Source: an uncultured Verrucomicrobiota bacterium
GTDB taxonomy: Bacteria > Verrucomicrobiota > Kiritimatiellia > CAIQIC01 > Lenti-01
Assembly (NCBI GenBank): GCA_964567795.1
Contig: CAZMOR010000043.1
Span: 1-47,258 of the forward strand
Reading direction: 5' to 3'
Length of the DNA: 47,258 nucleotides
The translations under genes were made by a program, and so were the position numbers. This document shows positions 5,528 to 35,764 of this stretch, one piece after another. The number at the start of each line of letters is the position of its first letter. Position 1 is the stretch's first letter. Below the pieces are notes generated by a model. That model had not been told where the DNA came from and ran no database searches. It saw nothing but the letters and a program-made list of their open reading frames with translations.

Positions 5528-5534
5528 GACAGAA

Positions 5535-7826: not shown

Positions 7827-7830
7827 GGTT

Positions 7831-9582
7831 TTACTCCGGCCGGATCACCCAGACATCCAAATTCGATGATATATTCATGACACGGACTGGATACGGGGCC
7901 AACTGGGCTTCGATTTTCTGGTTGTACTGCTCGCCCCGGCGCAGGCGTTTCGCGCTATACGCCGAAAGCGCCGGCTGCAGGATCTGCATGGCCCGGGAAG
8001 CCGGCGTCACCGTCATGGGGCGATCCCGTAGGAACCAGACGGGCCCGTCCCGAACGGCCAGCTCCGATATATCCGAAATCGTGTTGGGATGCAAGGTTCG
8101 CACGACATCCCCCTGTCCCGATTCGAAGCCCGACATGTGGCGCGCCAGCACGGTTGCTTGCGGGTCCAGGAACAGCAGATAGCGGACCACATCGGATTCC
8201 GCCGCGCCCCCAAGAAAGACATGCCCGGGCGGAACCGCCAGGCCGGCCAAGGCGGCCAGGGCCAGCCCTGCACCCAAAACGCGGCGGCCGGGCGCGCCGG
8301 CCCAGCGGTTCCAGAGCGAACCGAAAAGCAAGCCGCCCAGGGCGGCGGTGGCCAGCATCAGGCTCCAGCCTTCCCGCTGGTAATTGGTGAATTGAAACAC
8401 GCCCAAATGGACATTGAGGCTCGCCAGCAACCCCCAGGTGCCGACCAGGCGCCAGGCCGCGGCGCGCCGCCGCCAACCGAGAACCAAGGCCGCGGCGAAG
8501 ACCGCCGAGGTGGCCAACGCCAGGAAATTCAGCGCGCCGGAGGCATACCCGATGCGCTTGCAGGCGAAGAAGTTTCCGGCCAGAACCCGCAGCACGTCCA
8601 GCCAGTCGGCACCGGCCGATTCCACGATGCGGGTTTCCCCCGTCAACATCTGGGCCACCCCGATGCCGCGGTCGAGCGGCAACTGGATCGCCATGACCAG
8701 CACGGCGACGAACACCACCGCCAGAAGCGCCAGCAGGTTGAAACGGCCACGGCCGGAATCCCGATCCAGCAGGATGAGCAAACCCAGTAGCAGCAGCACA
8801 TGCAGCAGCATCATCGGCACGGCCACCGCCAGGCCCGCCAAGACCAGCGCCAGCCAGCCCCGCCGGTGCCCGGCGTACGCCCACAACGCCGCCGGAATCA
8901 GCAACAGTCCCAGCTGATTCGCAAAACAACCCACCCCGGTTTTTTGCAGCAGGTAGAAGGCCGGACAGCCCGCCACGAGCGCGGCGGCCGCCAGGCCGGC
9001 CGGCCGGCCGCGCAACTGCGCCAGCAGCGCGTAGGCGCCCAGGACCATTCCCATTCCGAAAAACGCCCCGCCAAACCGCGCCACCCAGTATGGCGGCCCC
9101 GGCAATAGCCACGCCGGCAGCGCCAGCACCCAGGCATAGGCGGGCGGATAGACCGCATGGTTTACACGGCCCCGTTCCAGCACATCCACCAGGAATCCCA
9201 AATGGCTGTAAGCATCCGATTGTCCCAGCGCCCACGTTTGCAGCGGATGGATCAAGCGCACCAGCCACGCCAGCAGCAGAATCGCGAAGATCGGCGAGAC
9301 CCATGAAAGCGGCGCGGTTTCATGCAACCGGCGGCGCAACAACAGTCCGGCGATGATCCATCCGCCCAGCCAGACGAGCACGGCCACGGCCGGTCCGATT
9401 CCGGAGCCATTGCACGCCTGTCCCAGCAGGGCGGCGGCGGAAACGCCTGCCACCCATGAAGCAAACAGGTATTCCCCGGCATCGGTCCAGCGCAACCGGA
9501 CCAAGGTCCAGGCCGGCAGCAGCAGATACAGCAGCAGTTGCATTCCGGTGACCTGCACGGCATGGAGCAGCAGGCTTTTCAT
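7831..9582 (-). CDS. Polytopic membrane protein (putative glycan polymerase or GT-C-like)
   Basis: The ATG at 9582 (MKSLLLHAVQVTGMQLLLYLLLPAW) overlaps the upstream stop by 4 nt (ATGA). There are many hydrophobic helices and a short soluble C-terminus. No specific family recognised. Confidence 0.55.
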   Translation of the reverse strand: MKSLLLHAVQVTGMQLLLYLLLPAWTLVRLRWTDAGEYLFASWVAGVSAAALLGQACNGSGIGPAVAVLVWLGGWIIAGLLLRRRLHETAPLSWVSPIFAILLLAWLVRLIHPLQTWALGQSDAYSHLGFLVDVLERGRVNHAVYPPAYAWVLALPAWLLPGPPYWVARFGGAFFGMGMVLGAYALLAQLRGRPAGLAAAALVAGCPAFYLLQKTGVGCFANQLGLLLIPAALWAYAGHRRGWLALVLAGLAVAVPMMLLHVLLLLGLLILLDRDSGRGRFNLLALLAVVFVAVLVMAIQLPLDRGIGVAQMLTGETRIVESAGADWLDVLRVLAGNFFACKRIGYASGALNFLALATSAVFAAALVLGWRRRAAAWRLVGTWGLLASLNVHLGVFQFTNYQREGWSLMLATAALGGLLFGSLWNRWAGAPGRRVLGAGLALAALAGLAVPPGHVFLGGAAESDVVRYLLFLDPQATVLARHMSGFESGQGDVVRTLHPNTISDISELAVRDGPVWFLRDRPMTVTPASRAMQILQPALSAYSAKRLRRGEQYNQKIEAQLAPYPVRVMNISSNLDVWVIRPE

Positions 9583-10490
9583 TTCCGGGCCCCCGCCTCC
9601 CGGCACAACCGGAGCCACACTCCGGCTTGATAAGCCAGTTTTCCCGCGGCCAGGAACGGCAGGAACAACGGCCAGCGGCAGTCCACACCGCGCATTTCCC
9701 AAGCTTGCCGCAAGGTCAACAACGCGGCATAAGGCAGGCCGAAAACCGGATATAACCAGGGCTGCGAAAAACGGACGGCCAGTTGCGCGGCCGGCCCCAG
9801 AACCGCGGCATGCCGGCGCTGAACCGCCAGCCCGCTCAACCAGCCGGAACGATATGACTGTGCAAAAATGCCGCGCATCCTCCCGCGCCGGTGGTCATGG
9901 GCGACCGTCACGCCCGCCTCGAAATAGCTTTTCCAGCCGGCGGCCTGCAGGCGCAACCCGAAATCCCAGTCCTCGGAAGCCAGGAGGGTTTCGTCGAATC
10001 CGCCCACCTGCCGGAAGATCTCCGTCCGAACCGTCAAAGCGCCTGAACCGAGATGGCGATAGCCAGAAATCCGGGACTGCGTGGCCGAGAAAATCACATA
10101 ATCGGCGCAACGGGACCAAAAACCTTCATCTGCCCCAACCACCCGGCAGGCCGCGGCCGCCACGTCGGTCCTGGTTTCAAGCACGCGCGAAAGAACCGCC
10201 ATCCAATCCGGCGGCGGCAGGCAGTCGTCGTCGATGAAATATAACGTGCGGCCGCGGGCGTGTGCGGCGCCCAGGTTGCGCATCCGGCCCGGTGCGAACA
10301 ATTCGCCGGTTTCAACCCAATTCAGTTCCATTCCGCCGGCACCCGGAGCAACGCCGGGGCGTACGGGCGTTGACACGATGATCTCCGTGCCGCCGGTCAG
10401 GCCGGTTTGCCGGTTCAAGGCGGCCAGCAGCGCCGGCAGCCGGTCCGGCCGCGCGCAAGGAACAATCACGCTGTGGAGGATGCCGCTCAT
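9579..10490 (-). CDS. GT2 family glycosyltransferase
   Basis: The ATG at 10490 gives MSGILHSVIVPCARPDRLPALLAALNRQT...YFIDDDCLPPPDW (GT-A fold with DDD motif). There are ATGA overlaps at both ends. The 385-aa track ORF is an N-terminal over-extension. Confidence 0.8.
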   Translation of the reverse strand: MSGILHSVIVPCARPDRLPALLAALNRQTGLTGGTEIIVSTPVRPGVAPGAGGMELNWVETGELFAPGRMRNLGAAHARGRTLYFIDDDCLPPPDWMAVLSRVLETRTDVAAAACRVVGADEGFWSRCADYVIFSATQSRISGYRHLGSGALTVRTEIFRQVGGFDETLLASEDWDFGLRLQAAGWKSYFEAGVTVAHDHRRGRMRGIFAQSYRSGWLSGLAVQRRHAAVLGPAAQLAVRFSQPWLYPVFGLPYAALLTLRQAWEMRGVDCRWPLFLPFLAAGKLAYQAGVWLRLCREAGARK

Positions 10491-11419
10491 CGCTTCCACC
10501 CCGCCCGGCCCAGACACCAGCCGAACACATACGCCATGTAGATGCGCGCCTGAATGCGGCGCGGCGCGCGGGCCAGGCCGAGCGAGGCCAGGAAATTGAG
10601 CGCTACCCGTACGAGCGCAGGTCCGCCCGCCGGCCCGGCGACGGGCGCGGCGGCCGCGGCCGTTCCGCCCGCGGGCGCCGTACGCCGGAGCATGGCATCC
10701 GAAACTCCACCCCAGAAATAGCGGCGATAGAACCAAGCCGGATGAGTCCGGTCGGGCGTTACCCGGTGCCGCACTGCCGCGGCCGGTGCATAATACAGAT
10801 AGCCGCCTGCCTCCTCGATGCGCCGCTGCAGCAGGGTTTCCTCGCCGGACAGCAGGCAGGTCCCCTTGCGCCCGAGCCGTTCGTCAAAACCATCCAACAG
10901 TTCGAGGCATTTCCTGGAATAAAAGCAGTTGGCGCCAATGATCCATTCCGACGGCAGCAGCTTGCGCGGCGTGGAACCCCAATCCACTTCTCCCAGCGGT
11001 TGGCGCAGGGGCGCATTCATCCACGCAGGCTCCGGCGTGTCCCATTGCAGCTGCACCGGCCCGCCCAGGCCGGCAGGCGGCGGCGTGACCGATTGAATAG
11101 CCGCCAGAGCCGCGGTCAGCCAGCCTTCGCCGGCGATGGCGTCATCGTCGAGATAAGCGATGAATTCACCCTGGGCCGCCCGCCAGCCGGTGTTGCGGGC
11201 GTGCGACAGTCCCGGCACGGGATCGAAAATGCGTTGCACGCCCCGGGCTTGATACGAATGGCAAACAGCCATCGTGTCATCGGTGGAAGCATTGTCCACC
11301 ACGATGATTTCATACCGTTCGCGGGGCAGATCCTGGCGCAAGAGGCTGTCCAGGCAGGCGGGCAGATAAGCCGCCCGGTTGTGGGTGCAGATGACCACGG
11401 TGATGTCCGGCATGGTCAT
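10487..11419 (-). CDS. GT2 family glycosyltransferase
   Basis: The ATG at 11419 gives MTMPDITVVICTHNRAAYLPACLDSLLRQDLPRERYEIIVVDNASTDDT...IAYLDDDA. It has an ATGA overlap with the upstream gene. Confidence 0.85.
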   Translation of the reverse strand: MTMPDITVVICTHNRAAYLPACLDSLLRQDLPRERYEIIVVDNASTDDTMAVCHSYQARGVQRIFDPVPGLSHARNTGWRAAQGEFIAYLDDDAIAGEGWLTAALAAIQSVTPPPAGLGGPVQLQWDTPEPAWMNAPLRQPLGEVDWGSTPRKLLPSEWIIGANCFYSRKCLELLDGFDERLGRKGTCLLSGEETLLQRRIEEAGGYLYYAPAAAVRHRVTPDRTHPAWFYRRYFWGGVSDAMLRRTAPAGGTAAAAAPVAGPAGGPALVRVALNFLASLGLARAPRRIQARIYMAYVFGWCLGRAGWKR

Positions 11420-12456
11420 GGCGCGGCTCCCTTGTTCGAACCGGAACGCAGCGCCACACGAAGCAGGGCGGCCCATTCGCGGACCGAGGTCGGACGCGCG
11501 CGGCGCAACGAAGATCCGGCATAACGCCGCAACATCTCACGGCCAACCGGACCGGCATGATAGCAGGCGCTGTACCAGATGCCCGCCACGATCCGGCGCA
11601 AGGCGGCGCGATCGTACCGGCCGGCGCGGTCATTGGCGGCGAGCAGTTGCTGCAGCCAGCCTTCCGCCCGCTCCAGGGTTGCGGCATCGCCGATCGGGAA
11701 GCAGCCACCGCGGCCGAGGTTGCGGTGAAAGCGCAGAGTCGCGTCGTCCACGGCCAAGCCCAAGGCCTGCAACTCCCGGCCGGCCACGCGGGCGGCACAC
11801 GCATCCATGCTCCCCCATTCCGTCCCGGTCAGGCTCGCGCCATGCACGCGGTAGCGCAGCACCACGCGATCCAGATTGGCCACGGGGAACAGGCGCGCCG
11901 CGCGGCTCCACAGCTCGTAGTCGTCGGCCGGGCAAAAGGCGGGATCGAAACGCAGTCCGTGCCGCTCGATCCATTCGCGGCGCATCATCACGGTGGGATG
12001 CACGAACGGACTGTCGAACAGCAAGTAAGCCTGGATTTCGGCATGTGTCATGGGGGGCCGGAAATAAGCTCCCCGGCGCAGGCCGAAGGCCGTGGCCAGG
12101 CCGCCGCTCAACCCGATGTCCGGATGCGCCTGCATGAAGGCGCGCTGGCAGGCAAGCCGGTCCGGCAGGGCAATGTCGTCCGCATCCATGCGGGCGATCA
12201 AGCTGCCGCGCGCATGGTCGAGACCGAGATTCAGGGCGCCGGAGAACCGCAGCCGCTCGCGGCTCTTCAACAGCCGCAGTCGTGGATCGCCGAAACTTTC
12301 GAGAATTTCGACCGTGCGGTCGTCCGAGGCGTCGTCCACCACGAGAAATTCAAAATCGCGGAAAGTCTGGTTCAGGATGCTGGCCGCCGCTTCGCGGACA
12401 TGCGGCTCCCCGTTGTGCACGGGCATCAATACCGTGATTTCCGGAATCCGGTCCAT
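11416..12456 (-). CDS. GT2 family glycosyltransferase
   Basis: The ATG at 12456 gives MDRIPEITVLMPVHNGEPHVREAAASILNQTFRDFEFLVVDDASDDRT...IARMDADD. The start lies 2 nt downstream of the preceding gene's stop. Confidence 0.85.
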   Translation of the reverse strand: MDRIPEITVLMPVHNGEPHVREAAASILNQTFRDFEFLVVDDASDDRTVEILESFGDPRLRLLKSRERLRFSGALNLGLDHARGSLIARMDADDIALPDRLACQRAFMQAHPDIGLSGGLATAFGLRRGAYFRPPMTHAEIQAYLLFDSPFVHPTVMMRREWIERHGLRFDPAFCPADDYELWSRAARLFPVANLDRVVLRYRVHGASLTGTEWGSMDACAARVAGRELQALGLAVDDATLRFHRNLGRGGCFPIGDAATLERAEGWLQQLLAANDRAGRYDRAALRRIVAGIWYSACYHAGPVGREMLRRYAGSSLRRARPTSVREWAALLRVALRSGSNKGAAP

Positions 12457-12458
12457 GT

Positions 12459-13592
12459 TCAGGCCTCCCCCGGACGCTGAACCAATTGACCGAAGAGTTC
12501 CGCATGCCGCTGCAGCCAGGGCCGGACATCCAGCGCTTCCTCGGCGCGTTGGCGGGCGGACCGGGCGTAGGCCGGCAGATTCCCGGCAATGGCATGCAGG
12601 GCCTCCGCCAGCGCTTCCGGTTCGGGGGCATGATCCTGCTCGTAGTCGCAGGGCGCCGGCAGGCCGATTCCGGCGGCATCCCCCACCAGTTCCGGCATGC
12701 CGCCGCTGGCGGAATACACCACCGGCAGGCCGCAAGCGAGCGCTTCCGCCGCCAGCCGCGGACAAGGATCGGCATATTTCGTATGCAGCAGGACGTGGGC
12801 GCGGCGCAGCAGCGCCGCCGCTTCCGTCTGGCGATAAGGACCATCGAATTCCACGGCCTCACCCATGCCCAACTGCGCCGCGAGCCCGCGCGCCTCGGCC
12901 AGGGCCGCGGCCGGATCGGACCGCCAGACATAGCGCCCGGCAACCAGCAGGCGCGCCTCCGGCAGGCGCCGGCGCAGCAAGGCAAACGCCTCGAGCGCCA
13001 CCCGCACGCGATACTCGAAATGATGGCTGCCCGCCAGCAGGATGACAAACCGCCCCGGCGCCGGATCCGCCGGCGCCGGGCTGAATACCTTTGTATCCAC
13101 CGGATTCAAGAGCACTTCGCTGTTTCCGTGAAAAGGAGCCAGGAACCGGTCGGCCGTCTCCCGGCAGAACCGGCTCTGGTACACCACATGATCCGCCAGT
13201 TCCAGCACTTGCCGCATCGGCCGATTGTGCTTCCGCCAGCCGACCGGCAGCCAGCCGGGATAGCCCACGCCGTTCTGGTTCAAGACCACCTTCACGCCGG
13301 CGCGGCGCGCCAAACGCGCCAGCCGCGGCGCAAATTGCGGCAGGGAACTGCTGATCAAGTACAGCACGTTCGCCCCGCGCGGGGTGTTGGGAAAGCGGGT
13401 TTGCAGATCCTGTGCCTTGATGATACCGCCCGAACCGAATTCCTGCGGGCCCGGCAGCCGGTCGAATCCGTAGAAAACCCGGGGCGTGCCGCCTGTTGCG
13501 GGCCGGACCCAGCGCCGGAGATCGCGCGGCAGCGTGGCGGCATAGAGCAGGCTGTCAACCAGGCCGGACCATGCGGGGTGCGGCGCGCTCAT
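12459..13592 (-). CDS. GT4 (GT-B) family glycosyltransferase
   Basis: 377 aa. The C-terminal half reads LLHTKYADPCPRLAAEALACGLPVVYSASGGMPELVGD (GT1/GT4 nucleotide-sugar binding signature). The ATG at 13592 overlaps the upstream stop (ATGA). Confidence 0.8.
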   Translation of the reverse strand: MSAPHPAWSGLVDSLLYAATLPRDLRRWVRPATGGTPRVFYGFDRLPGPQEFGSGGIIKAQDLQTRFPNTPRGANVLYLISSSLPQFAPRLARLARRAGVKVVLNQNGVGYPGWLPVGWRKHNRPMRQVLELADHVVYQSRFCRETADRFLAPFHGNSEVLLNPVDTKVFSPAPADPAPGRFVILLAGSHHFEYRVRVALEAFALLRRRLPEARLLVAGRYVWRSDPAAALAEARGLAAQLGMGEAVEFDGPYRQTEAAALLRRAHVLLHTKYADPCPRLAAEALACGLPVVYSASGGMPELVGDAAGIGLPAPCDYEQDHAPEPEALAEALHAIAGNLPAYARSARQRAEEALDVRPWLQRHAELFGQLVQRPGEA

Positions 13593-14659
13593 GCCAGGAC
13601 CCCTTTCATGAACACCGCGTGCTCCGCCGCCACCGCTTCGGTGGCATAGTGTTTCTCCACCACCTTGCGGGCGGCGGCCTCCTCGGCGGTCCAGTCCAGG
13701 CGCCCCTCCAACAACCGGTCAAAGGCCGCGCGCCACTCCTCGGCGGTCGCACACAACCAGACGCCCGCCCCGCCGGACCGTTCGGCCACGTCGCGGTAAC
13801 TGGGCACGGGCCCCGCCAGGGCGAGCCGCCCGCACGCCATCGCCAGCGTGATTTTCCATTCGGTATGCCCGAGATTGTAGCTGTTGTCCGCAAAACGGGG
13901 CGACAGGCAAATGCAGCGGTGCGCGGCATAAAACGCCAGCAGGTCCGCCACGGAAGTATAGGGCTGTATCCGGTGCGGCACGTCCGCCAGCAGGCGGTCG
14001 AACCGCGCACGCAGATCCGGCTTCCAGGAATCCAGGGCGTTCAGCGAATTCGTAACCAGCGTCAGCCGGATGCGGGCACCCAGTCCGCGCAACTCTTCTT
14101 CAATGGCCAGCAGTTCGAACAACTTGACGGCCTGTCCGGACCAAACCAGTTCCAAGGGGCCGGAGCCGGCGGCCGCCGGCCCGCGCGGGGGCACAAGTTC
14201 CAGATTTATGTTGTCCGGAATCCACCGCACCACCGGATTCAGCGCCGCGCACCGTTCCGCCAGGAAACGGGAATCGGCAATGACCGCGTCGCAGCCGCGG
14301 GTCATGTCCTCAGCTTCCCGCCGCTGTTGCTCCGTCGGCGCCATGCCGTCATAGTAGAAGGTGCCGTCGCGGTCGTAGTAATTCACGTTGGCGTCGAAGA
14401 CCGTTTGGAGTCCGGCGCGGCGGGCGCGGTCGCGCAAGGCGCGGTCGCGCGGGCCCATGGCCTTGACGAACACCAGCGCATCGTAACGGCGCCAGGGCCG
14501 GTACAACTCGTATCGCAGGCCGAATTCCGGGCGCCGGTTGACGGCCGCGGCAATCCAGCCGAAGCGCATGAGACCGAAATCCCCTTCCGGAATCCGGTCC
14601 GCGTGCAGCAGCCGGATCTGGCGCAGCTGGTTGCCAATGATGAAACCGATGCGCTTCAT
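13589..14659 (-). CDS. Putative GT-B-like glycosyltransferase or hypothetical protein
   Basis: The ATG at 14659 (MKRIGFIIGNQL...) has an ATGA overlap. It shows a two-Rossmann-like pattern (VFVKAMG..., LELVWSGQAVK...) but no strong signature. The function is inferred from context. Confidence 0.5.
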   Translation of the reverse strand: MKRIGFIIGNQLRQIRLLHADRIPEGDFGLMRFGWIAAAVNRRPEFGLRYELYRPWRRYDALVFVKAMGPRDRALRDRARRAGLQTVFDANVNYYDRDGTFYYDGMAPTEQQRREAEDMTRGCDAVIADSRFLAERCAALNPVVRWIPDNINLELVPPRGPAAAGSGPLELVWSGQAVKLFELLAIEEELRGLGARIRLTLVTNSLNALDSWKPDLRARFDRLLADVPHRIQPYTSVADLLAFYAAHRCICLSPRFADNSYNLGHTEWKITLAMACGRLALAGPVPSYRDVAERSGGAGVWLCATAEEWRAAFDRLLEGRLDWTAEEAAARKVVEKHYATEAVAAEHAVFMKGVLA

Positions 14660-15459
14660 GCGGGCCGGCCTCCGCCGTCCGGAAAAAAAGCGCGGACATC
14701 CTCCGTGCACCGGGGTCCCTGGCGGTAACTGGTGTCCTTATAGGCAGAAACTGCCGGCCGGCCCAGGCCTGCGGCCAGAACCCGGCGGAGGCGCGCGCGC
14801 CAGCCGCCGCGCCAGGATTCCGACACATTGGGCCGTGCCCCGGCCGCCGCCTGCCGGGAACTGCGGGCCAGGAATGCCATGTGCAGGCAGCGGAAATCGG
14901 ACGTCGCCCAATCGGCATGCTCGAAGAACCGGTACTGGCGCTCCCCGGAAAAACCGGCGCGGAAGCGCTGGACACCGCCATGCAGCCGCTGGCCACAGCC
15001 GGTCCAGGATTCGAGCGCCGCAAAATTGTAGAGCTTGGTTGCTGTCCGGGAAGGCGGACCACGGTAGCCCGAGGCGATGTTCCGGACCTCGTCCAGGGAT
15101 TCGCAATGCAGTGTGTGGCCGACGATGCGCCAGCAATCGGCATGCGCGCCGGCCAGCAGATCCCGCCGGAGCCGCGCCAAGCCCTGCGGGTCGTAAATCT
15201 CGTCGCCATCCACCCCGAACACCCACGTGTCGGTGCCGGCCAATGCAGCCACCAAATCGTGGGATTCGGATGGATGCGCAACCGTGCGGAGTTCGATGCG
15301 GCCGGTTTCCCGCCACGACTCCAGAATGGCGGGCGTGCCGTCGGTTGAACCATTGTCCGCCACGATCATGCGGTCGCAGAAGCCCGCGATGTTCCGGAGC
15401 ACGCGGTCCAGGAAACGGTCCTCGTTGCGGATCAGCAGAATGGCCACGATGGATGTCAT
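14656..15459 (-). CDS. GT2-like glycosyltransferase
   Basis: The ATG at 15459 gives MTSIVAILLIRNEDRFLDRVLRNIAGFCDRMIVADNGSTDGTPAILE...GVDGDEIY (GT-A DxD). ATGA overlaps at both ends. Confidence 0.75.
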   Translation of the reverse strand: MTSIVAILLIRNEDRFLDRVLRNIAGFCDRMIVADNGSTDGTPAILESWRETGRIELRTVAHPSESHDLVAALAGTDTWVFGVDGDEIYDPQGLARLRRDLLAGAHADCWRIVGHTLHCESLDEVRNIASGYRGPPSRTATKLYNFAALESWTGCGQRLHGGVQRFRAGFSGERQYRFFEHADWATSDFRCLHMAFLARSSRQAAAGARPNVSESWRGGWRARLRRVLAAGLGRPAVSAYKDTSYRQGPRCTEDVRAFFPDGGGRPA

Positions 15460-16988
15460 CGCGAATCCCGGCTCCACCGGACCAGGCGATAGGCCGCATT
15501 GCTAAAGACACATTCCGAAGCCGGAGGCAGAGGCGTGTTTGCCGTCACGGGATCCATTAAGACCAGCGAAACCGTGCCCGCCGGATCCAGCGCGGCCAGC
15601 GGCCGGGGATCGCCGTCGTACCAGGCCCGGGCGGCCTGCCAGCGGGCTCTCCATTCGAGGATTTCCACGTCTCGGTAGGGATGGGTTTTGCGATCGATCC
15701 AGACGGGCACGCGGGCATCCAGGCGGAATTCCTCCAGATGCGGAGGAATCAACAACACGCCGCCGGGCGACAACCGGGCCGGCACCGCCGCCAGCAATTC
15801 CTGATACTGCGGATCTTTTGCGACCCGGAGCTGCCGCCCCCCCAGAACGCCCAGAACCGCGGCCAGGAGACTGGCCCCCACGCCCATCACGGCCAGCACC
15901 GCCATGACATTCCGTCCCGCCGGCCGGCGGCCAACGATCTCCGCGAGCCAACCGGCAATCAACGCCAGCGATACCGGAACGAGCCACACCGACACCCGCC
16001 ACGGAAAAAGCAGCGCCAGCGAAGCATTCCGGAACAACCCGGCGGCCAGCGAAAGAACCAGGGCTCCGGCCACGGGCACCAGCAACACGCGTCGCAACGG
16101 CTGCTTCCAGACGCAGGCGAGGCCCGCCATTACCAAACCGATTTTCAACCATGCCAGGCGGGTCCACCAGAAAGCGGGATCGGCATGCTGGGGAATCCGC
16201 TCGGAAAACAGGATGTTTTGCGCGACGGCAAACACCTCCGGACCGGTTGGCCGGAAACGCAGGAAATTGAAAACCACGAACGGCAACATGACCGCGGCGC
16301 CGCCCGCCAGCAAGCCGATGGCCCGGCGCGGATTTTTTCCCTCCGCCCACGCCGCCCAGGCGATGCCGGCGATCAGCATGGCGGCGCCCAGCATGTACGA
16401 CGCATGAAACGCCTGGGCGGCCACGGCGCAGGCGATCGCGGCCACCGGCCGCTGGCGGGCAGCCAAGGCCACGGCCAAAACCAGCAGCACGCCGAAGACG
16501 CAGGGTTGCCAGACGGGTCCGAGGACGTATTGGCTGGCCAGCCCGCTGGTCCAGAATTCCGGAGTCCACGGATCGTGGAGATTCCGCGCCAGGAAGTTGA
16601 ATTGCATGGAATGCAACAGGACCAGAAAGGCCATGACGGCGGTCCGGCCCGGCCAGCCGGAAGCCGGTGTCGCCATCCGCACCAGCTGCCACAGCGCCGC
16701 GCCATAAACCAGCAACATGCCTCCGTAAGCCACCTGCAGGAAAACCGGAGCAAGCTGCATCAACGCCACGGATAGACCGGTGAACAAAGGAAAGGGATCC
16801 AGGGTGCGCACTACCCAGTCCTGCGCCAATCCGGCGGGTTCCACCTGCGCCACCGCGTGAAGCAAATAGGTATTCTGGTTGCCGGAATACAGCGGCAGTT
16901 GGCCATGGGCCAGGGCGAACAGCCCGCCCCACCCCGCCGGCTCAAGGATTCGTGCCAGGCGGACCAGAATGGATCGCGGCACGTTCAT
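15456..16988 (-). CDS. Polytopic membrane protein (putative O-antigen polymerase/ligase-like or GT-C-like)
   Basis: 510 aa, with about 11-12 hydrophobic helices and then a soluble tail of about 110 aa. The ATG at 16988 overlaps the upstream stop (ATGA). No specific family recognised. Confidence 0.55.
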   Translation of the reverse strand: MNVPRSILVRLARILEPAGWGGLFALAHGQLPLYSGNQNTYLLHAVAQVEPAGLAQDWVVRTLDPFPLFTGLSVALMQLAPVFLQVAYGGMLLVYGAALWQLVRMATPASGWPGRTAVMAFLVLLHSMQFNFLARNLHDPWTPEFWTSGLASQYVLGPVWQPCVFGVLLVLAVALAARQRPVAAIACAVAAQAFHASYMLGAAMLIAGIAWAAWAEGKNPRRAIGLLAGGAAVMLPFVVFNFLRFRPTGPEVFAVAQNILFSERIPQHADPAFWWTRLAWLKIGLVMAGLACVWKQPLRRVLLVPVAGALVLSLAAGLFRNASLALLFPWRVSVWLVPVSLALIAGWLAEIVGRRPAGRNVMAVLAVMGVGASLLAAVLGVLGGRQLRVAKDPQYQELLAAVPARLSPGGVLLIPPHLEEFRLDARVPVWIDRKTHPYRDVEILEWRARWQAARAWYDGDPRPLAALDPAGTVSLVLMDPVTANTPLPPASECVFSNAAYRLVRWSRDSR

Positions 16989-17743
16989 GCGCGCCGGCGT
17001 TCCTGCATGTTCATGATCCAGTGGTTCAGGCGGGCGCGCCAGGACCGGTAGAACCGGATTTTCTTGGGATCAAAACCAAAATCCCGAAAGGCGCGCCATT
17101 CGCGCGACACGTCGGACAGGCCATGAATGAGGTACACCTCCCGCCGGGCTTCAGGATGCGCCGCCAGCCAGTCCCAGTTGACGATTTTCGGATTCATGTC
17201 GAACCCGTCCGCCAGCTGTTTTTCCTTGGTCATCGCCAACGCTTCGGTCCAGGCCCGCTCGTCGTGGAACCATTTGTTGTAGAGCAGGTCCAGGAAGCGG
17301 TCCCAGTCGCAGGACCGGTCGTAATATACGCAACCGCAGCCCACCACCTTGTTCGCTGCGTGATAGTTGGGCATGAACAGGAAGCGGGGCGCCCGGCCGA
17401 GCCAGTCGGTCAGGGCCGCGTCCGGCGGGCGCACCGCCAGGATGTCGAAATCGCAATACAGGATGGCGCCGAACCGCTGCACGGCCAGATGCGCCCACCA
17501 TCCCTTGCAATTCCACATCGGGTTGGCCCGCACGACGGCCGGCATGTCGCGGTCCACCACGATCTCGCCGAAATATTTGGCAAATGGGCGGGCCTGACGT
17601 TCGCAGGTGGAATCCACATACAGCAGGGCGTTTTTCCAGAATTCCGGATTTTGCCGGACGGTCCAGCGCAGTTCCGCCAGCGCCGCATCGAATCCCCGGG
17701 GAGCATAGAACAATCCGGCGACAACCTGCAGCGGGGCGCTCAT
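16985..17743 (-). CDS. Putative DxD-motif (GT-A/GT32-like) glycosyltransferase
   Basis: 252 aa. KGWWAHLAVQRFGAILYCDFDILAVRPPD resembles the sugar-transferase DxD region of GT32-type enzymes. ATGA overlaps at both ends. Weak assignment. Confidence 0.45.
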   Translation of the reverse strand: MSAPLQVVAGLFYAPRGFDAALAELRWTVRQNPEFWKNALLYVDSTCERQARPFAKYFGEIVVDRDMPAVVRANPMWNCKGWWAHLAVQRFGAILYCDFDILAVRPPDAALTDWLGRAPRFLFMPNYHAANKVVGCGCVYYDRSCDWDRFLDLLYNKWFHDERAWTEALAMTKEKQLADGFDMNPKIVNWDWLAAHPEARREVYLIHGLSDVSREWRAFRDFGFDPKKIRFYRSWRARLNHWIMNMQERRRA

Positions 17744-18873: not shown

Positions 18874-19827
18874 TCAACCAAGTCTTCCATAGCGCCACCG
18901 CTCGCGCAATCCCGGGCGAAGCTGTTCCGCGAGTTTCCACAGCCGGGCATAGGCCCGCCCCAGGCGGATGGAGCGGCGCAACAGACAGGACCAGGGCGAC
19001 CGCACCCGCCGCTGGCGCGCCAGTTCCAGAACCTCCCGAACGGCATCGGGATCGCCATACCGGAAGGCCCGCCGGAGCGCCAGATCCACCGCTTTCCCGC
19101 CGGCGTGGGCCGGCAGCACATCCACCGCCCCCGCCTGCCGCAACCGGTCGATGTGGTCCAGCGTGCAGGCCAAGCCCTTCATCAAGGTCAGGCGCCAATT
19201 GCCCGACACGTTGGCGGCATGCTGCTTCTTGCGCAGCACGACGGCATTGCAATACTTGAACTTGGCCAGCAGGCCGAGTCGAATGAACAGGTCCTGATCC
19301 TCGACGCCGTCGCGACGGCTGTCAAATCCGCCCGCCTGGCGAAACAGGTCGGCCTGGATCAACATCGCCCCGGGAGCGAGAATTTGAACCCGGAACAGAT
19401 TCGCCTGCATGGCGGCCGGCACGGGACCTTCGCAAGCCGCCGAGCCGGAGACCCGCCAGCCGCGGCCACCTTGCCGCTCCGTTTCAATCGCCCCGTAATA
19501 TACCGGAAAACCGGGATAGACCTCGGCCGTCCGCGCAAGACGCGCGAGGGCTTCCGGCGGCAAGTCGTCGTCCTGGTCGAGGAACAGCAGCCATTCGCCC
19601 GCGGCCGCCTGCGCCCCCCGGTTGCGCGCGGCGCTGACGCCCGCATTCGCCTGTGGGATCAGGCGCACGTCGGAAAAGGCGGCCACCACTTCTCGGGAGG
19701 CATCGGTACTGCCGTCATCCACCACGATGATCTCGCGTGGCGGGACCGTCTGGGCCTGGGCGCTGCGGATGGCCTCCGGGATCAGGGCCGCGCCGTTATA
19801 ACAGGCGATGATGACGGAAACGTTCAT
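18874..19827 (-). CDS. GT2 family glycosyltransferase
   Basis: The ATG at 19827 gives MNVSVIIACYNGAALIPEAIRSAQAQTVPPREIIVVDDGSTDAS...LLFLDQDD. It has an ATGA overlap with the Prim-Pol gene stop. Confidence 0.85.
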   Translation of the reverse strand: MNVSVIIACYNGAALIPEAIRSAQAQTVPPREIIVVDDGSTDASREVVAAFSDVRLIPQANAGVSAARNRGAQAAAGEWLLFLDQDDDLPPEALARLARTAEVYPGFPVYYGAIETERQGGRGWRVSGSAACEGPVPAAMQANLFRVQILAPGAMLIQADLFRQAGGFDSRRDGVEDQDLFIRLGLLAKFKYCNAVVLRKKQHAANVSGNWRLTLMKGLACTLDHIDRLRQAGAVDVLPAHAGGKAVDLALRRAFRYGDPDAVREVLELARQRRVRSPWSCLLRRSIRLGRAYARLWKLAEQLRPGLRERWRYGRLG

Positions 19828-20576
19828 GTCTCCCCCGGCGGTTTGCGGAGAACGACCGTGCGGAAGAAATCGCGGAGCATTCGGCGGTGCAGGTACCTGA
19901 AATTGCGCATGAATTTCCAGACGTGCCAGTAGCGGGAAACGCCGCACGCCCGGAAACGCGCCGCTGCAGCCGCCGGCAGGACCGCAACGGGCTGGGCCGG
20001 GTGGATGAACTCGTAATCAACGCCCGTGCCATGCCGGGAAGGGGGAATGGTGCAGAAGCAATACTCGCCGCGCACATCAATACCGCGGGCCACGCAGTCA
20101 TGGGTGGCCGGGATGAAGGGGCAGGACTCCGGCATGCGGTAGAACAAGTGGAAGCCGCCGCCGCCTGTCCGGACAGCCAAGGTCGGCGGCAGTTGGCATT
20201 CCCGGATCAATGTCTTGGCGGATTCAAAATCGTCCAGGTCGATCACCACCAGATTGAAGCGCTTTCCGGTCCGCACTCCGAAATTGAACCGGGCCAGCAA
20301 ATCCGGATCCCGGCGCAGCCGGGCATAGGAGGACAGGCGCGGGAAAAAATAGTGGCTCAGCGAAACCGGCAATTTGGCCGCCAATTTGCGGGTCCGGGCC
20401 GACATCCAAGGCCGGTCCTTCGCGAGCAGAATCAAAGTCAGCCCGCGTTTTTCATAGAAATCAAGGTAATCGCGCGTCGTTTCCAGCCGGGGAATGCCGG
20501 CGGACCCCGGCGGTGGCGGCGAACCGGCCGGCAACCAGTCGGGAATCGCTTGAACGCTGGCGGGATTCACGGTCAT
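19824..20576 (-). CDS. Stand-alone archaeo-eukaryotic primase (AEP) Prim-Pol domain protein
   Basis: 250 aa from the ATG at 20576, which lies 1 nt after the wzt stop. The three AEP motifs appear in order: NLVVIDLDDFE, TGGGGFHLFYRM, GIDVRGEYCFCTIPPSRHGTGVDYEF. The TTG at 20633 listed in the track is a less likely start. Confidence 0.7.
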   Translation of the reverse strand: MTVNPASVQAIPDWLPAGSPPPPGSAGIPRLETTRDYLDFYEKRGLTLILLAKDRPWMSARTRKLAAKLPVSLSHYFFPRLSSYARLRRDPDLLARFNFGVRTGKRFNLVVIDLDDFESAKTLIRECQLPPTLAVRTGGGGFHLFYRMPESCPFIPATHDCVARGIDVRGEYCFCTIPPSRHGTGVDYEFIHPAQPVAVLPAAAAARFRACGVSRYWHVWKFMRNFRYLHRRMLRDFFRTVVLRKPPGET

Positions 20577-20577
20577 G

Positions 20578-21897
20578 TCACCCGGGAGTGGCGGATTCCG
20601 GCGGCAGCGCCTCGAATCGGATGAGGGGCGCAATCGCCCCCGGCCGGGCCACGATCCAGTGAGGCGAATCGCTCAGCCCGCCGTGGACATGGAACTTGAC
20701 CGACGGGGCGTCGACCCGGGGGCGGCAGATCCATTCAGAATGGTGCAGGTTCGCCGTCAACTCGATCCGGTAGGTGCCTTCGTTGAGCAGGTGCGGGGGG
20801 ATCCAGGCCACCAGCCGATTGTGTCCCGCCCGGATGGGCGGCCAGCGGGAAGGCTCCGAGTCCGTGTGTTTCGTGATAAACACGGAATCGCCATTGGCGG
20901 TAATGAGTTCGAAGCCCAAGGTCAAATCCGGGCGGGGCGTGCGGCTCACACCCTCGATCAGCACGCCGACCAGTTCGTCGGCGCGCGCGTCGCGGTGCAG
21001 AAGTTCACCTTTCCCGTCCGCGATGGCCAGGCGGGTCGGCTGGAAATAGGGATTGCCCCCGGTCACATCCGCGGCGCGCCATTCGGCTTCGCCGGCATTG
21101 AAATCCATGTAGCGGCCGACCAGTTCTTCGGTATCGCCGGCGGCCACCAACCGGCCCTGGTCCAACCACAAACAGCGCGTGCACATGTTCCGCACGGCAT
21201 TCATCTGGTGGCTGACGAACAGGACCGTCCGCCCTTCGCTGGCCACCGCCCCCATCTTGCCCATGCATTTTTTCTGAAAGGCGGCATCGCCGACGGCCAG
21301 AACCTCGTCCACGATCAGGATTTCGGTTTCCAGGTGGGCGGCGACGGCGAACGCGAGCCGCACCATCATGCCGCTGGAGTAGCGCTTGACGGGCGTGTCC
21401 ATGAAGCGCTCGACCTCGGCGAAGGCGACGATTTCGTCGAATTTGCGGTCGATTTCGGCTTTCTTCATGCCCAGGATCGTGCCGTTCATGTACACGTTTT
21501 CACGCCCGGTCAGGTCGGGATGGAAGCCGGTGCCCACTTCCAGCAGGGAACCCCAGCGGCCTTCAATCGTGGCTTCGCCGCTGGTGGGTTCGGTGATCCG
21601 GCTTAAAATTTTCAGCAGGGTGGATTTTCCGGCGCCGTTGCGGCCGATGATGCCCACCACATCGCCCTGGTGGACATCGAAACTGACGTCGTCCAGCGCC
21701 CAGAAGAGTTCGCGCCCTGGGGGGCCGGACCGGGAGGCGAGTCCACCAGGCCGGATCTTGCCCATGTGTTCCACGGGATTGCGGCCGCGCAGGCGGTGCC
21801 ACCAGAACTGGATTTCGTCCTGCAGCGTTTGGCGGCCGATGGTGCCCAGGCGATAGGCCTTGGACAGGTTGCGGACTTGGATGACGGGTTGGCTCAT
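20578..21897 (-). CDS. wzt: Polysaccharide ABC exporter ATP-binding protein with C-terminal glycan-binding (Wzt_C-like) domain
   Basis: It has Walker A (GRNGAGKSTLLK), an ABC signature (YSSGMMVRLAF), Walker B (ILIVDEVLAVGD) and an N-terminal TagH/Wzt-type QDEIQFWW segment. About 170 extra C-terminal residues are beta-rich. Confidence 0.9.
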   Translation of the reverse strand: MSQPVIQVRNLSKAYRLGTIGRQTLQDEIQFWWHRLRGRNPVEHMGKIRPGGLASRSGPPGRELFWALDDVSFDVHQGDVVGIIGRNGAGKSTLLKILSRITEPTSGEATIEGRWGSLLEVGTGFHPDLTGRENVYMNGTILGMKKAEIDRKFDEIVAFAEVERFMDTPVKRYSSGMMVRLAFAVAAHLETEILIVDEVLAVGDAAFQKKCMGKMGAVASEGRTVLFVSHQMNAVRNMCTRCLWLDQGRLVAAGDTEELVGRYMDFNAGEAEWRAADVTGGNPYFQPTRLAIADGKGELLHRDARADELVGVLIEGVSRTPRPDLTLGFELITANGDSVFITKHTDSEPSRWPPIRAGHNRLVAWIPPHLLNEGTYRIELTANLHHSEWICRPRVDAPSVKFHVHGGLSDSPHWIVARPGAIAPLIRFEALPPESATPG

Positions 21898-21909
21898 GGC
21901 GGATCCGGT

Positions 21910-22746
21910 TTACACGATGTCGATGAAGGTTCGTTGCACTTTGTTGAACATCAGCAGTCCCGTGACAAACAGCAGCGCCCCGGCCGCCAGGCCCGAGCCG
22001 AGGAGGACCAGGTCCGCCGCACCGGTGCCCAGGAAGGCGCGCCGGGCGAACACTACCACGCAGGACATGGGATTCACGTACACCACCCACATCCACTTCG
22101 CCGGCACGTTGGTCGTGGAATAGACGATGGGGGTCGCGAACATCCAGAGCTGCGACAGGAAGGCCAGGGCATAGCGCAGATCGCGGTATTTGGCCGTCAG
22201 GGAGGCCAACCAGAGTCCGGCGCCCATGCCGGTCAGGGTGCACTGGAGCAGCAGGACCGGCACCAATGCCAACCAATGGTTGGGCTGGAGTACCGAACCG
22301 GGCCGGCTGTAGAAGTAGAAATAGAAGCCCAGGAACATGAGCAGGTTGAGGACAAACTGCTCCAGGCTCTTGATGGCCAGTGAAAGGGGAACAATGAGCC
22401 GCGGGAAATACACCTTGCCGAAGATGCTGGCGTTGCCAACGAACGTGTTCGAAATGTCGTTGAGGCAGCCCTGGAAAAAGGTCCAGAACACCATCCCGCT
22501 CATATAGAACAGGAAAGGCGGCATGCCGTCGGTGCCCACCTTGGCGATGTTGCCAAAGACCACGGTGAAGACCAGGGTCGTGGCCAGCGGCTGCAGGACG
22601 AACCACAGCGGCCCGAGGATGCTCTGCTTGTATTGCGTGGTGAAATCCCGGCGCACCAGGAACCAGAGCAGGTCGCGGTATTCCGCGATCTCCCGCCAGG
22701 GAATGGTCCACCAAGGCTGGTTGGCGCTAATGCGGGTGCGGTGCAT
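21910..22746 (-). CDS. wzm: Polysaccharide ABC exporter permease (ABC-2 type)
   Basis: The ATG at 22746 is preceded by GGGAG. WREIAEYRDLLWFLVRRDFTTQYKQSILGPLWFVLQPL is the typical ABC-2 N-terminal signature, followed by 6 hydrophobic helices. The TTG at 22764 in the track is less likely. Confidence 0.85.
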   Translation of the reverse strand: MHRTRISANQPWWTIPWREIAEYRDLLWFLVRRDFTTQYKQSILGPLWFVLQPLATTLVFTVVFGNIAKVGTDGMPPFLFYMSGMVFWTFFQGCLNDISNTFVGNASIFGKVYFPRLIVPLSLAIKSLEQFVLNLLMFLGFYFYFYSRPGSVLQPNHWLALVPVLLLQCTLTGMGAGLWLASLTAKYRDLRYALAFLSQLWMFATPIVYSTTNVPAKWMWVVYVNPMSCVVVFARRAFLGTGAADLVLLGSGLAAGALLFVTGLLMFNKVQRTFIDIV

Positions 22747-22760
22747 GCGCGGGCTCCCGT

Positions 22761-23288
22761 TCAACCGGATTTCTGCCGCAGCAGATCCAGATACCGCCGG
22801 TTGCGCCCGGGACGTTCCCGGGTGGTCGCGGACGACTCCGTCCAGAAATGATCCTCCCCGCGCCCGAGGGCCCGGCCCCGCGCGGTGTGCTTATCCAGCG
22901 CGTAGTCGGGAATCTCCTTTCGCCCGAGCAGGCCTTTCTGGAGACAATGGTAGAGTTCGTCCACCATGCGGTCCTTGGGCGCCGCCGCCAGATAGGTCGC
23001 CCCCATCAACCCGTAGAGAAACCGCTCCGTGCGTCCGGCGGGGAATTCGAAATAGGCCGCGCGCAAGGTCGCCACGACGACCACGGCCTGGGGATCGGCC
23101 AGCCCGACATCCTCCGCGGCGATGGTGGCCAACCGGCTCCAGAGCTTGGACTCAAGCTCGGAAAGGATCATTTCATAGGCCCAGTAGGCGGCCTCTTCGA
23201 CCTGGCCGCGGCGGATTTCCTTCTGCAAGGCCGAAATGACCTCGTCGGCCACATAGCCGTTCTTGGTTTTGACGGTCGCATAGTTCAT
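22761..23288 (-). CDS. RarA/MgsA C-terminal helical domain-only protein (no AAA+ module)
   Basis: 175 aa. ISALQKEIRRG, RLATIAAEDVGLADPQA and GATYLAAAPKD match my recollection of the conserved blocks of the RarA/MgsA C-terminal domain (E. coli: ISALHKS.RGS, ASEDVGNADP, YLA.APKSN). There is no Walker A/B. A strong RBS (GGAGGAGG) precedes the ATG at 23288. Confidence 0.6.
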   Translation of the reverse strand: MNYATVKTKNGYVADEVISALQKEIRRGQVEEAAYWAYEMILSELESKLWSRLATIAAEDVGLADPQAVVVVATLRAAYFEFPAGRTERFLYGLMGATYLAAAPKDRMVDELYHCLQKGLLGRKEIPDYALDKHTARGRALGRGEDHFWTESSATTRERPGRNRRYLDLLRQKSG

Positions 23289-23309
23289 GGCGGTCTTCCT
23301 CCTCCGGGT

Positions 23310-23828
23310 TCATTTGCGCCGGGTCAGCCGGCGCACGATGGGGTTGGACAACAATGCGCCGAACCGCTTGTGCAGCTGGCGTGAACGGGTCAGGCGGCTG
23401 TTCAGGAAGTCCCATTCGGCCGCATCGATCGCGCCGGCGGATTGCTGCAGCAGTTCCAAGGCGTCGTCGAGCGCGGTGCCTGCGGCATCGAATTTCCGCC
23501 GCAACAAGGCCAGGACGCCTTCCTGCAGCGCCGTGCCGATGTTTTCCGCGGTGCGGTAATAGCTCTTGCGGTCGCCCTGCTTCCAGGCCCGGCGCACCAG
23601 CCCCAGATGTTCGAGCTGCCGCGAGGCTATGCTGACCGCGGCCTTGCTCAATCCCAGGTCCGCCTCGATGCGGTCCAGAGGACATTCGCCGGCCGTGAGG
23701 TAGAGATACACCAGGACCTGGCCCAGCGTCCGCCCCAGCCCCAGATCCTGGGAAGTGGCGCCCCCGGCCTGCACCAGGCGCTGCTTCACCGCCGCGCTGC
23801 CCGTCGTTTTTCTCGTGGATGTGGCCAT
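23310..23828 (-). CDS. GbsR/MarR-family winged-helix transcriptional regulator
   Basis: 172 aa. LGLGRTLGQVLVYLYLTAGECPLDRIEADLGLSKAAVSIASRQLEHLGLVRRAWKQGDRKSYY is a GbsR-type wHTH. It is the first gene after the promoter-like region. Confidence 0.7.
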   Translation of the reverse strand: MATSTRKTTGSAAVKQRLVQAGGATSQDLGLGRTLGQVLVYLYLTAGECPLDRIEADLGLSKAAVSIASRQLEHLGLVRRAWKQGDRKSYYRTAENIGTALQEGVLALLRRKFDAAGTALDDALELLQQSAGAIDAAEWDFLNSRLTRSRQLHKRFGALLSNPIVRRLTRRK

Positions 23829-23834: not shown

Positions 23835-23882
23835 AACTTTTATCGTTTTATAAAAGTTATAGAATCCGCAAAAGCTTGTCAA
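23835..23882 (-). promoter_or_regulatory. Sigma70-like promoter with overlapping palindromic operator for the regulator/glycan operon
   Basis: On the minus strand: TTGACA (23882-23877), a 15-nt spacer, TATAAC (23861-23856). This is followed and overlapped by a perfect 9-bp inverted repeat, AACTTTTAT (23835-23843) / ATAAAAGTT (23850-23858). The region is an AT-rich island in a GC-rich genome, 7 nt upstream of the regulator ATG. Confidence 0.5.
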
Positions 23883-27348: not shown

Positions 27349-27580
27349 AAAATCCGGTCTCCTCAATGTCAAATGGCGGGCAGTCAACCCAAGCCACCGC
27401 GCTAGACAGCAACTTTTAAGCATTTTACCGTTCAAATCAAATAATATTGAAGGAAACCCGGATTTTTCAAATTCGGCTCGAACCCCCGCTCCGCTTGCAT
27501 GATTCGGCCCGGCGCGGCGGTCACATGCTCTTCTCATGGGGTTGACTTGACCGGAAAATCGGGCAGTCTTTCTGGGATAT

Positions 27581-35734: not shown

Positions 35735-35764
35735 AATGCCCTGCCTTTGCCCGCGCCGGGCCCC

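Follow-up and report, generated by a model that had tools for sequence, protein, structure and literature searches.

A core-only primase-polymerase embedded in a Wzm/Wzt surface-glycan operon of an uncultured Verrucomicrobiota bacterium

We report that a gene for a small primase-polymerase (Prim-Pol) from the superfamily of archaeo-eukaryotic primases (AEP) is embedded in a surface-glycan operon on contig CAZMOR010000043.1 (assembly GCA_964567795.1) of an uncultured Verrucomicrobiota bacterium, analysed here as a stretch of 47,258 nucleotides (the window). This part of the window forms the start of an operon for ABC-transporter-dependent (Wzm/Wzt) assembly of a surface glycan, and the Prim-Pol, a protein of 250 residues that comprises little more than the catalytic core, keeps the same glycan-gene company in its relatives while its exact neighbour shifts, the most distant members adjoining a different type of exporter. 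Both the superfamily and the operon type are known; neither the architecture of the subfamily nor its conserved place within glycan loci seems to have been described. We consider it probable that the glycan system includes the Prim-Pol as a functional component. The fuller reading suggested by the sequence, in which it would be a membrane-proximal nucleotidyltransferase of glycan assembly and possibly a chain-end capping enzyme, is put forward tentatively and with some doubt.

The Prim-Pol, its operon and its relatives

The operon comprises about 20 genes on the minus strand, running from 23828 to 3176 with short gaps or 4-nt overlaps between all real genes (Table 1). In it an ABC-2 permease and a Wzt/TagH-type ATPase stand beside glycosyltransferases, the combination that marks an ABC-transporter-dependent glycan locus; the permease matched Wzm/RfbD-type and KpsM-type models, under their equivalog cut-offs, and the ATPase matched TagH/Wzt-type models at 1.7e-60 and 1e-53 (NCBIfam). 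With its ABC-2 permease, C-terminally extended ATPase and long run of family 2 and family 4 glycosyltransferases (GT2 and GT4), the locus resembles known Wzm/Wzt and TagGH exporters, from which it departs in carrying two replication-type genes. The list of open reading frames (ORFs) in six frames and the sequence itself bore out the minus-strand gene order given in an earlier note on this DNA, namely a regulator, a 175-residue protein, wzm, wzt, the 250-residue protein and a GT2, and also the junctions that it had described: a single base separates the TGA of wzt from the ATG of the Prim-Pol gene, whose own TGA overlaps the ATG of the GT2 gene (ATGA). The codon usage of the Prim-Pol gene is indeed like that of its neighbours (G+C at third codon positions, GC3, 0.76 against 0.75-0.84), as is its overall G+C; the DNA of the organism is 65% G+C. 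Recent insertion of the Prim-Pol gene is excluded by this composition, by the coupling to its neighbours and by conserved synteny.

Assignment of the 250-residue protein to the AEP superfamily, originally made from three motifs, was confirmed with profile hidden Markov models (PF09250, E=1.5e-17, 65 bits against a cut-off of 22.8), and the protein also matched DNA primase families in PHROG (2.8e-10). All three motifs are present and are invariant in 11 orthologues, with no loss of the catalytic DxD or His positions. The catalytic residues D113, D115, H143 and D167 are invariant in 12- and 13-sequence alignments; in an alignment of 25 sequences the three aspartates are again invariant and H143 is nearly so. 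Between them the alignments cover the close orthologues, the diverged mini family and generic Prim-Pols. K68, P70, T137, G141, PPS178-180, H182, G185 and Y188 are also kept in the 11 orthologues and in distant Prim-Pols. An AlphaFold2 (AF2) model built from 25 sequences (predicted local distance difference test, pLDDT, 88.8; predicted template modelling score, pTM, 0.87) was matched by Foldseek with probability 1.00 to 1ro0, 1rni, 3m1m and 6a9w, which establishes the AEP fold. The best matches in the Protein Data Bank (PDB) were the prim-pol domain of pRN1 ORF904 (E=5e-7) and the primase-polymerase of phage NrS-1, and those in BFVD were Prim_Pol domains of 600-900-aa phage primase-helicases (down to 3e-12, root-mean-square deviation ~3.4 A). 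The fold search was needed because a sequence search of the PDB with a narrow family profile returned nothing meaningful.

Although it shares the fold and the DxD, sGxGxH and hDhRG...PPS motifs with pRN1 ORF904 and NrS-1 (Foldseek E=5e-7 to 7e-5), the window's Prim-Pol differs from both in lacking a helix-bundle/PriCT domain and a helicase, in ending with a basic amphipathic helix, in reading E-Y-C-F where they have GGY after motif III, in an insertion in the N-terminal region, and in being encoded within a glycan operon instead of in the replication module of a plasmid or phage. Its catalytic core spans approximately residues 34-200, and neither Pfam nor the AF2 model revealed a PriCT, AAA_25, DnaB_C, D5, helix-bundle or helicase domain. 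Only about 50 residues lie beyond the core, forming a short helix and then a long one (217-242). Two reports, on pRN1 and RepB', give the helix-bundle domain as required for dinucleotide formation (PMC2965215; PMC8567376). Lacking this domain and any helicase, the protein is unlikely to be a conventional self-sufficient primase.

Residues 218-241 have the highest hydrophobic moment of the protein (muH 0.79), the last 40 residues carry a net charge of +8, and the isoelectric point (pI) of the whole protein is 10.07. Basic, aromatic-rich tails of +8 to +9 end not only the Prim-Pol but also the adjoining GT2 (GT2_317; +9, muH 0.72), a 252-residue operon product called unk252 here (+8) and another GT2 (10487-11419; +8), while the tails of four proteins outside the operon carry net charges of -1 to -8. 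Judged from these sequence properties, the shared tails may act as a common membrane-interface anchor.

A word-indexed search of 5.8 billion proteins recovered 11 orthologues at 68-89% identity, followed by generic Prim-Pols that matched over the core only. The arrangement recurs: on three long contigs (L001, L003 and L004) the regulator, the 175-residue protein, wzm, wzt, Prim-Pol, GT2, GT4, unk252 and a DUF6798-domain protein follow one another in the identical order, and synteny is kept in relatives whose Prim-Pol is 68-73% identical. Gene order, with its 4-nt overlaps, holds to about seven genes past the Prim-Pol, where the relatives' loci end. Pairwise ratios of nonsynonymous to synonymous substitution (dN/dS) across four genomes were 0.22-0.35 for the Prim-Pol and 0.06-0.35 for other operon genes; the Prim-Pol is under purifying selection. 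Identity between the window and L003 is a mosaic, being high for DUF6798 (97%, dS 0.08), wzm (96%) and the regulator (95%) and lower for the 175-residue protein (86%), GT4 (84%) and the Prim-Pol (73%), which points to recombination within the locus or to locally fast evolution of the Prim-Pol.

Beyond the close orthologues, the small Prim-Pols can be told apart from the generic ones. When 185,579 species genomes were scanned with two motif patterns, close relatives were absent from the results, which consisted of eight generic Prim-Pols at 28-39% identity over the best segment; complete ORFs, 358-852 aa long, were read for six of these, and five of the six have PriCT_1, AAA_25, DnaB_C, HTH or DUF5906 domains, and no homologues of the window's operon genes lay near these generic Prim-Pols. 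By contrast with these long proteins, an exhaustive HMMER search of 1.84 billion cluster representatives yielded a handful of full-length relatives of 190-230 aa (P0146-P0148, P0152-P0154, P0157 and P0159), together with a 456-aa protein (P0150) in which two complete mini Prim-Pol domains stand in tandem with the catalytic residues kept in both halves. All catalytic residues and the N-terminal K-x-P region are common to the mini relatives, most of which have a basic tail. Mini Prim-Pols (190-250 aa, without a PriCT/helix-bundle domain or helicase, and mostly with a basic end helix) form a small subfamily that appears to be undescribed.

In the contexts that were retrieved, the mini Prim-Pols of diverged lineages are again found in polysaccharide loci. 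A metagenome scan with a six-sequence alignment gave three loci, one of them informative. In locus L024 the order is wzt (55% identical, its C-terminal domain included), Prim-Pol (42%), directly after it an orthologue of the operon's GT4 (GT4_374; 76%), and then one of unk252 (66%); in L026 a GT2_317 orthologue (44%) is followed by the Prim-Pol (39%). In L029 an orthologue of the regulator (59%) is divergent from the Prim-Pol (38%), which has its own TTGACG-N17-TATAAT promoter. In L030 (2528-3882) two mini Prim-Pols of 225 and 226 aa, overlapping by 4 nt, immediately precede a Polysacc_synt (Wzx-like) flippase in the company of PEP-CTERM proteins; the first copy is the more diverged at motif III. 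The coupled pair in L030 and the fused P0150 suggest a dimeric or pseudo-dimeric functional unit. The G+C of these loci ranges from 55% to 71%, and linkage to glycan genes persists through the rearrangements at 28-43% Prim-Pol identity.

The MgsA_C-only protein and the regulator

The second replication-type gene of the operon encodes the 175-residue protein, which the earlier note had matched to the C-terminal domain of RarA/MgsA without a Walker A/B module. Both parts of that description were upheld: PF12002 matched at E=1.2e-9 (38.7 bits, cut-off 27), and no AAA module was found with Pfam or NCBIfam. A profile of the family matched PDB entries 3ctd, 2r9g, 3bge and 3pvs (RarA residues 257-391) at 1.4e-11 to 3e-8, and for the AF2 model (pLDDT 96.1) the top Foldseek matches were C-terminal fragments of RarA/MgsA. 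The likeness to RarA/MgsA (3PVS; fragments 2R9G, 3CTD, 3BGE and 8G28) consists in this alignment and in the motifs ISALxKxxRG and EDxGxADP; the AAA+ module and the N-terminal lid are missing. The protein begins at the equivalent of RarA residue ~250, and the gene for the winged helix-turn-helix (wHTH) regulator lies 21 nt upstream. A truncated or pseudogenised RarA was rejected, as there is a large family of similar length, purifying selection and no upstream AAA remnant.

The stand-alone MgsA_C family has at least 991 homologues, and the 120 listed are 113-210 aa long. Among the matches listed, many carry the label 'RarA' or 'AAA ATPase'; hundreds of proteins annotated in this way are stand-alone MgsA_C domains without an ATPase; no description of them was found in the full-text literature. 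The few homologues named by organism are from a Woesearchaeota archaeon, a Shapirobacteria (candidate phyla radiation, CPR) bacterium and Anaerolineae, and phage proteins matched as well. In L019 the MgsA_C gene (64%) is followed by a GT2_317 orthologue (55.5%) and next by a B12-radical SAM gene, and no Prim-Pol is seen there; GT2_317, which also has its orthologue beside the mini Prim-Pol of L026, is therefore a recurrent partner of both odd genes. In L015/L016 (38% G+C) the MgsA_C gene lies among GT9, GT2, HD, pyridoxal-phosphate (PLP)-decarboxylase and GT4 genes. Elsewhere its neighbours are a tRNA deacylase (in archaea), a nucleoside hydrolase and a phosphoribosyltransferase (PRTase)-like protein with a weak Pribosyltran match, and a 239-aa member annotated 'ATPase' is gp80 of Arthrobacter phage Kitkat (L031 3938-4657), with a RecB-like exonuclease and an HNH endonuclease nearby.

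MgsA_C and Prim-Pol genes were found together in the window's clade only; the short contigs L024, L026 and L029 have the Prim-Pol without an MgsA_C gene in view. An obligatory pair of the two was rejected, each being found at a locus without the other in view. The idea that two replication-type domains jointly bracket the exporter is consequently unsupported, since the MgsA_C family is independent, its contexts are varied and the two genes occur apart. Rather, the MgsA_C-only proteins are an independent domain family with a recurrent, non-exclusive link to glycan loci. RarA tetramerises through its C-terminal region, so the MgsA_C-only protein is probably an oligomeric adaptor or a ligand-binding subunit; its role in the operon is less certain than that of the Prim-Pol.

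The regulator had been called GbsR/MarR-like. Matches to such models do exist, but all lie below the cut-offs (MarR in Pfam, E=8.1e-5, 22.9 bits, cut-off 24.6; CudC/GbsR-type in NCBIfam, E=2.7e-11, 43.6 bits, equivalog cut-off 218), so the assignment is softer than claimed; a weak Csa3-like wHTH match was seen among the PADLOC models. Its orthologue likewise opens the operon in L001, L003 and L004. Upstream of it lies a footprint, TTGACA ... TATAAC, with a perfect palindrome, AACTTTTAT-N6-ATAAAAGTT (window 23835-23858, minus strand), and this block is common to the window and to L001, L003 and L004, amid intergenic DNA that has diverged. The palindrome occurs once in the window, with 0 copies expected by chance, and once upstream of every orthologous regulator (L001 6717-6740, L003 6719-6742, L004 732-755). 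From its sequence, the conserved block is predicted to be the probable promoter and operator for the glycan operon as a whole, and the palindrome is consistent with a dimeric wHTH repressor. As a GbsR/MarR-like repressor, the regulator would bind the palindrome over the promoter and control the operon. No sigma-70 promoter or terminator was found above chance level by pattern scan within the operon. In L029 (263-460) a related palindrome, TTTAGAA-AA-TTCTAAA, abuts the start of the regulator gene, and the promoter ahead of the Prim-Pol is near consensus.

Possible roles of the Prim-Pol

Exaptation for a non-DNA role and domestication of a mobile-element remnant had been proposed as alternatives. 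Integration into the glycan operon is favoured and signs of a mobile remnant are absent from the present context, while the non-DNA chemistry is something that we can frame only conditionally. Scans of the window for tRNA genes and Rfam families were empty, no integrase or repeat scars were found at the locus, IMG/VR held no viral relatives of the Prim-Pol, and plasmids gave core-domain matches only. PADLOC gave no match for the Prim-Pol, the MgsA_C protein or unk252, and membership of the Prim-Pol in a known defence system was rejected on that ground. Taken together, synteny, linkage despite rearrangement, purifying selection, invariant catalytic residues and the lack of mobile, viral or defence signs favour functional integration of the Prim-Pol.

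What it might do there can be pictured by analogy. LicD, fukutin and FKRP, in which a Pol-beta-like nucleotidyltransferase fold carries out phospho-transfer in glycan synthesis, provide a precedent for a polymerase-type fold in glycan chemistry, although theirs is another fold and superfamily than AEP. In the mechanism that we propose, the C-terminal helix would tether the Prim-Pol to the cytoplasmic face of the membrane by the glycosyltransferases, several of which are similarly tailed. The two-metal AEP site would move a nucleoside monophosphate (NMP) from a nucleoside or deoxynucleoside triphosphate (NTP or dNTP) onto a hydroxyl group that the lipid-linked glycan would offer in place of the primer 3'-OH. 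The cap, most likely at the non-reducing end, would halt elongation and make a mark for the extended C-terminal domain of Wzt. Among the operon products, Pfam and NCBIfam showed no methyltransferase, kinase, 3-deoxy-D-manno-octulosonic acid (Kdo) transferase or any further recognised chain terminator, and with Wzt being extended the Prim-Pol would occupy this vacant terminator slot.

In the E. coli cluster wbdD directly follows wzt, and wbdD mutants accumulate polymer that is not exported. Its product caps the O9a glycan and so enables recognition by Wzt (PMC3482155). The analogy is one of role only: WbdD, too, combines a borrowed catalytic domain (a eukaryote-type kinase) with a C-terminal helical region and works with a Wzt that has a C-terminal recognition domain (PMC3482155), but it is a 708-aa kinase-methyltransferase with a coiled coil and without sequence or fold kinship to the Prim-Pol, and the cap is hypothetical here. 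By such analogy, nucleotidyl transfer by the Prim-Pol onto the glycan or its chain end is possible but doubtful. It is rather unlikely that mini Prim-Pols in general put one or more nucleotides on the end of a lipid-linked polysaccharide and that this cap ends polymerisation and licenses Wzm/Wzt export; with the same reserve, they would then be the first AEP-fold enzymes with a non-nucleic-acid acceptor, a new class of chain terminator and the source of a new glycan-nucleotide conjugate.

Several observations weigh against a capping nucleotidyltransferase. We know of no AEP with a non-nucleic-acid acceptor, and as every conserved residue is canonical, a DNA or RNA substrate is the default expectation; the basic C-terminal helix could as well bind nucleic acid. 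The C-terminal 174 residues of Wzt, where the mark would be read, gave a weak sub-threshold match to Wzt_C (E=0.0066, 16.9 bits, cut-off 30.4), another point on which the locus differs from known Wzm/Wzt and TagGH exporters, and the extension is conserved at ~55% identity in L024. The partner in L030 is a Wzx-type flippase, so a role confined to Wzt recognition is impossible for the subfamily as a whole. The dN/dS of the Prim-Pol is the highest or near-highest in the operon, and in L024 it is 42% identical against 55-76% for its neighbours, i.e. faster-evolving, which could reflect relaxed constraint. MgsA_C proteins occur in a phage DNA-metabolism region and beside tRNA deacylase, nucleoside hydrolase and PRTase-like genes. 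Moreover, of the five extra contexts four are short contigs (1.3-2.8 kb), and most may come from one broad lineage, in which case the recurrence would partly be vertical inheritance.

Some of these points lend themselves to an unlikely alternative, that the Prim-Pol still acts on DNA (translesion, terminal-transferase-type synthesis or repriming), perhaps with the RarA-like protein, as a long-lived passenger derived from a mobile element. All canonical Prim-Pol residues are retained, the nearest folds are plasmid and phage primase-polymerases, the pI is strongly basic, the gene evolves faster than its neighbours, and the operon holds a second replication-type domain whose family also occurs in the RecB/HNH region of an actinophage. 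Yet the helix-bundle/PriCT domain and the helicase are missing, neither viral relatives nor scars of the integrase, tRNA or repeat kind were found, translation of the gene is coupled to that of wzt and of GT2, its linkage to glycan genes outlasts several rearrangements and divergence to 28-43% identity, and the two odd genes are non-adjacent, each being seen at loci without the other. An improbable variant keeps the protein in glycan synthesis as a nucleotidylyltransferase supplying a transferase of the operon with an activated precursor (an NDP-linked sugar, alditol or phospho-donor), instead of an enzyme that acts on the completed chain. The chemistry is that of polymerisation, in which the alpha-phosphate of an NTP is attacked and pyrophosphate released; no sugar-nucleotide synthesis gene was detected within the operon, the Prim-Pol lies repeatedly beside one particular GT2, before or after it, and other MgsA_C contexts include HD, nucleoside-hydrolase and PRTase-like (weak Pribosyltran) genes. 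Against this, no AEP is known to catalyse such a reaction, it is not obvious why a soluble precursor enzyme would need an amphipathic membrane-type tail, and dedicated nucleotidylyltransferase folds are ubiquitous and hence the expected solution.

Distinctly improbable is a regulatory role, in which the Prim-Pol would make a short oligonucleotide or nucleotide signal governing synthesis or export of the glycan, with the regulator or the MgsA_C-only protein as a possible sensor. The arrangement in L029, where the Prim-Pol stands alone with its own promoter, divergent from the regulator orthologue, would suit such a role, as would the conservation of regulator and operator with the operon; de novo dinucleotide synthesis by AEPs, however, requires the helix-bundle domain that is absent here, the 1-nt and ATGA coupling suggests stoichiometric co-production with structural genes, and the tail is like those of the transferases. 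That the protein is a non-catalytic scaffold or adaptor in an assembly complex is very improbable: the tandem pair in L030 and the fused P0150 do suggest a dimeric architecture, and motif III is more diverged in the first L030 copy, but the metal- and nucleotide-binding residues are invariant across the entire subfamily and both halves of P0150 retain the catalytic residues.

To our knowledge, AEP and Prim-Pol enzymes are known solely from DNA and RNA transactions, namely replication priming, repair and the replication of plasmids and phages, and we found no link of an AEP/Prim-Pol to polysaccharide loci in the full-text literature. A catalytically intact, core-only subfamily kept in the polysaccharide loci of diverged lineages points to either a new reaction for the AEP fold or an undiscovered tie between nucleotide polymerisation and envelope glycan synthesis. 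Were the capping reading true, it would mean a new mechanism of chain-length control and export licensing in ABC-transporter-dependent pathways, would predict a new class of surface antigen, and would provide an enzyme for joining nucleotides to glycans.

Other genes of the operon and of the window

The genes downstream of the Prim-Pol are mostly glycosyltransferases (Table 1). Pfam and NCBIfam scans gave no match for unk252, which is conserved adjoining GT4 in L001, L003, L004 and L024; with its DxD-like YCDFDI motif, it may be an unrecognised GT-A-type transferase. No recognised initiating phosphoglycosyl transferase was found in the operon.

Table 1. Positions of the operon features within the window
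Feature	Position	Strand	Basis or remark
Candidate promoter and operator	23835..23880	minus	TTGACA, TATAAC, palindrome 23835-23858; upstream of regulator
Winged-helix regulator, 172 aa, GbsR/CudC/MarR-like, first operon gene	23310..23828	minus	sub-cut-off profile matches, synteny
Stand-alone RarA/MgsA C-terminal-domain protein, 175 aa	22761..23288	minus	PF12002
wzm, ABC-2 permease, 278 aa	21910..22746	minus	ABC2_membrane E=4.7e-17
wzt, ABC ATPase, 439 aa, C-terminal extension ~170 aa	20578..21897	minus	ABC_tran E=5e-22
Mini Prim-Pol (AEP), 250 aa	19824..20576	minus	PF09250, AF2 fold, invariant motifs
GT2 (GT2_317), 317 aa	18874..19827	minus	Glycos_transf_2 E=7e-30; ATGA-coupled to Prim-Pol
GT4 (GT4_374), 374 aa	17740..18864	minus	Glyco_transf_4 and Glycos_transf_1 matches
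unk252, 252 aa, YCDFDI motif, basic C-terminal tail	16985..17743	minus	no family match
DUF6798-domain protein, 510 aa	15456..16988	minus	DUF6798 E=2.5e-10; syntenic in relatives
Remainder of operon	3176..15459	minus	
GT2	14656-15459	minus	Pfam
GT-like	13589-14659	minus	Pfam
GT4	12459-13592	minus	Pfam
GT2	11416-12462	minus	Pfam
GT2	10487-11419	minus	Pfam
GT2	9579-10490	minus	Pfam
Large protein without assigned family	7831-9702	minus	operon member
Large protein without assigned family	5535-7826	minus	operon member
GT2	4766-5728	minus	Pfam
GT4	3176-4312	minus	Pfam
C-terminal tails, 40 codons each	19824-19943, 18874-18993, 16985-17104, 10487-10606	minus	

Directly upstream of the operon, a 1228-aa protein (23974-27660, minus strand) bears a GDSL lipase, a BACON, two Flg_new_2 and two malectin domains, with an additional weak sub-threshold F5/8 type C match. 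Its orthologue is kept as a neighbour in L001 and L003, and it may be a glycan-active esterase tied to the locus. A sulfatase is present in L001 and, along with the CotH-kinase/Laminin_G_3 protein and the pseudopilin genes named below, suggests a bacterium of the PVC type. Elsewhere in the window, an ORF of 2167 aa (40082-46585, plus strand; GC3 0.87) is without a Pfam match; its presumed shadow is an ORF of 2317 aa on the other strand (39419-46372). Further features of the window are a CotH-kinase/Laminin_G_3 protein of 986 aa (219-3179, plus strand) and a cluster of four prepilin-type pseudopilin genes (N_methyl/T2SS G and J; 33991-36184, minus strand).

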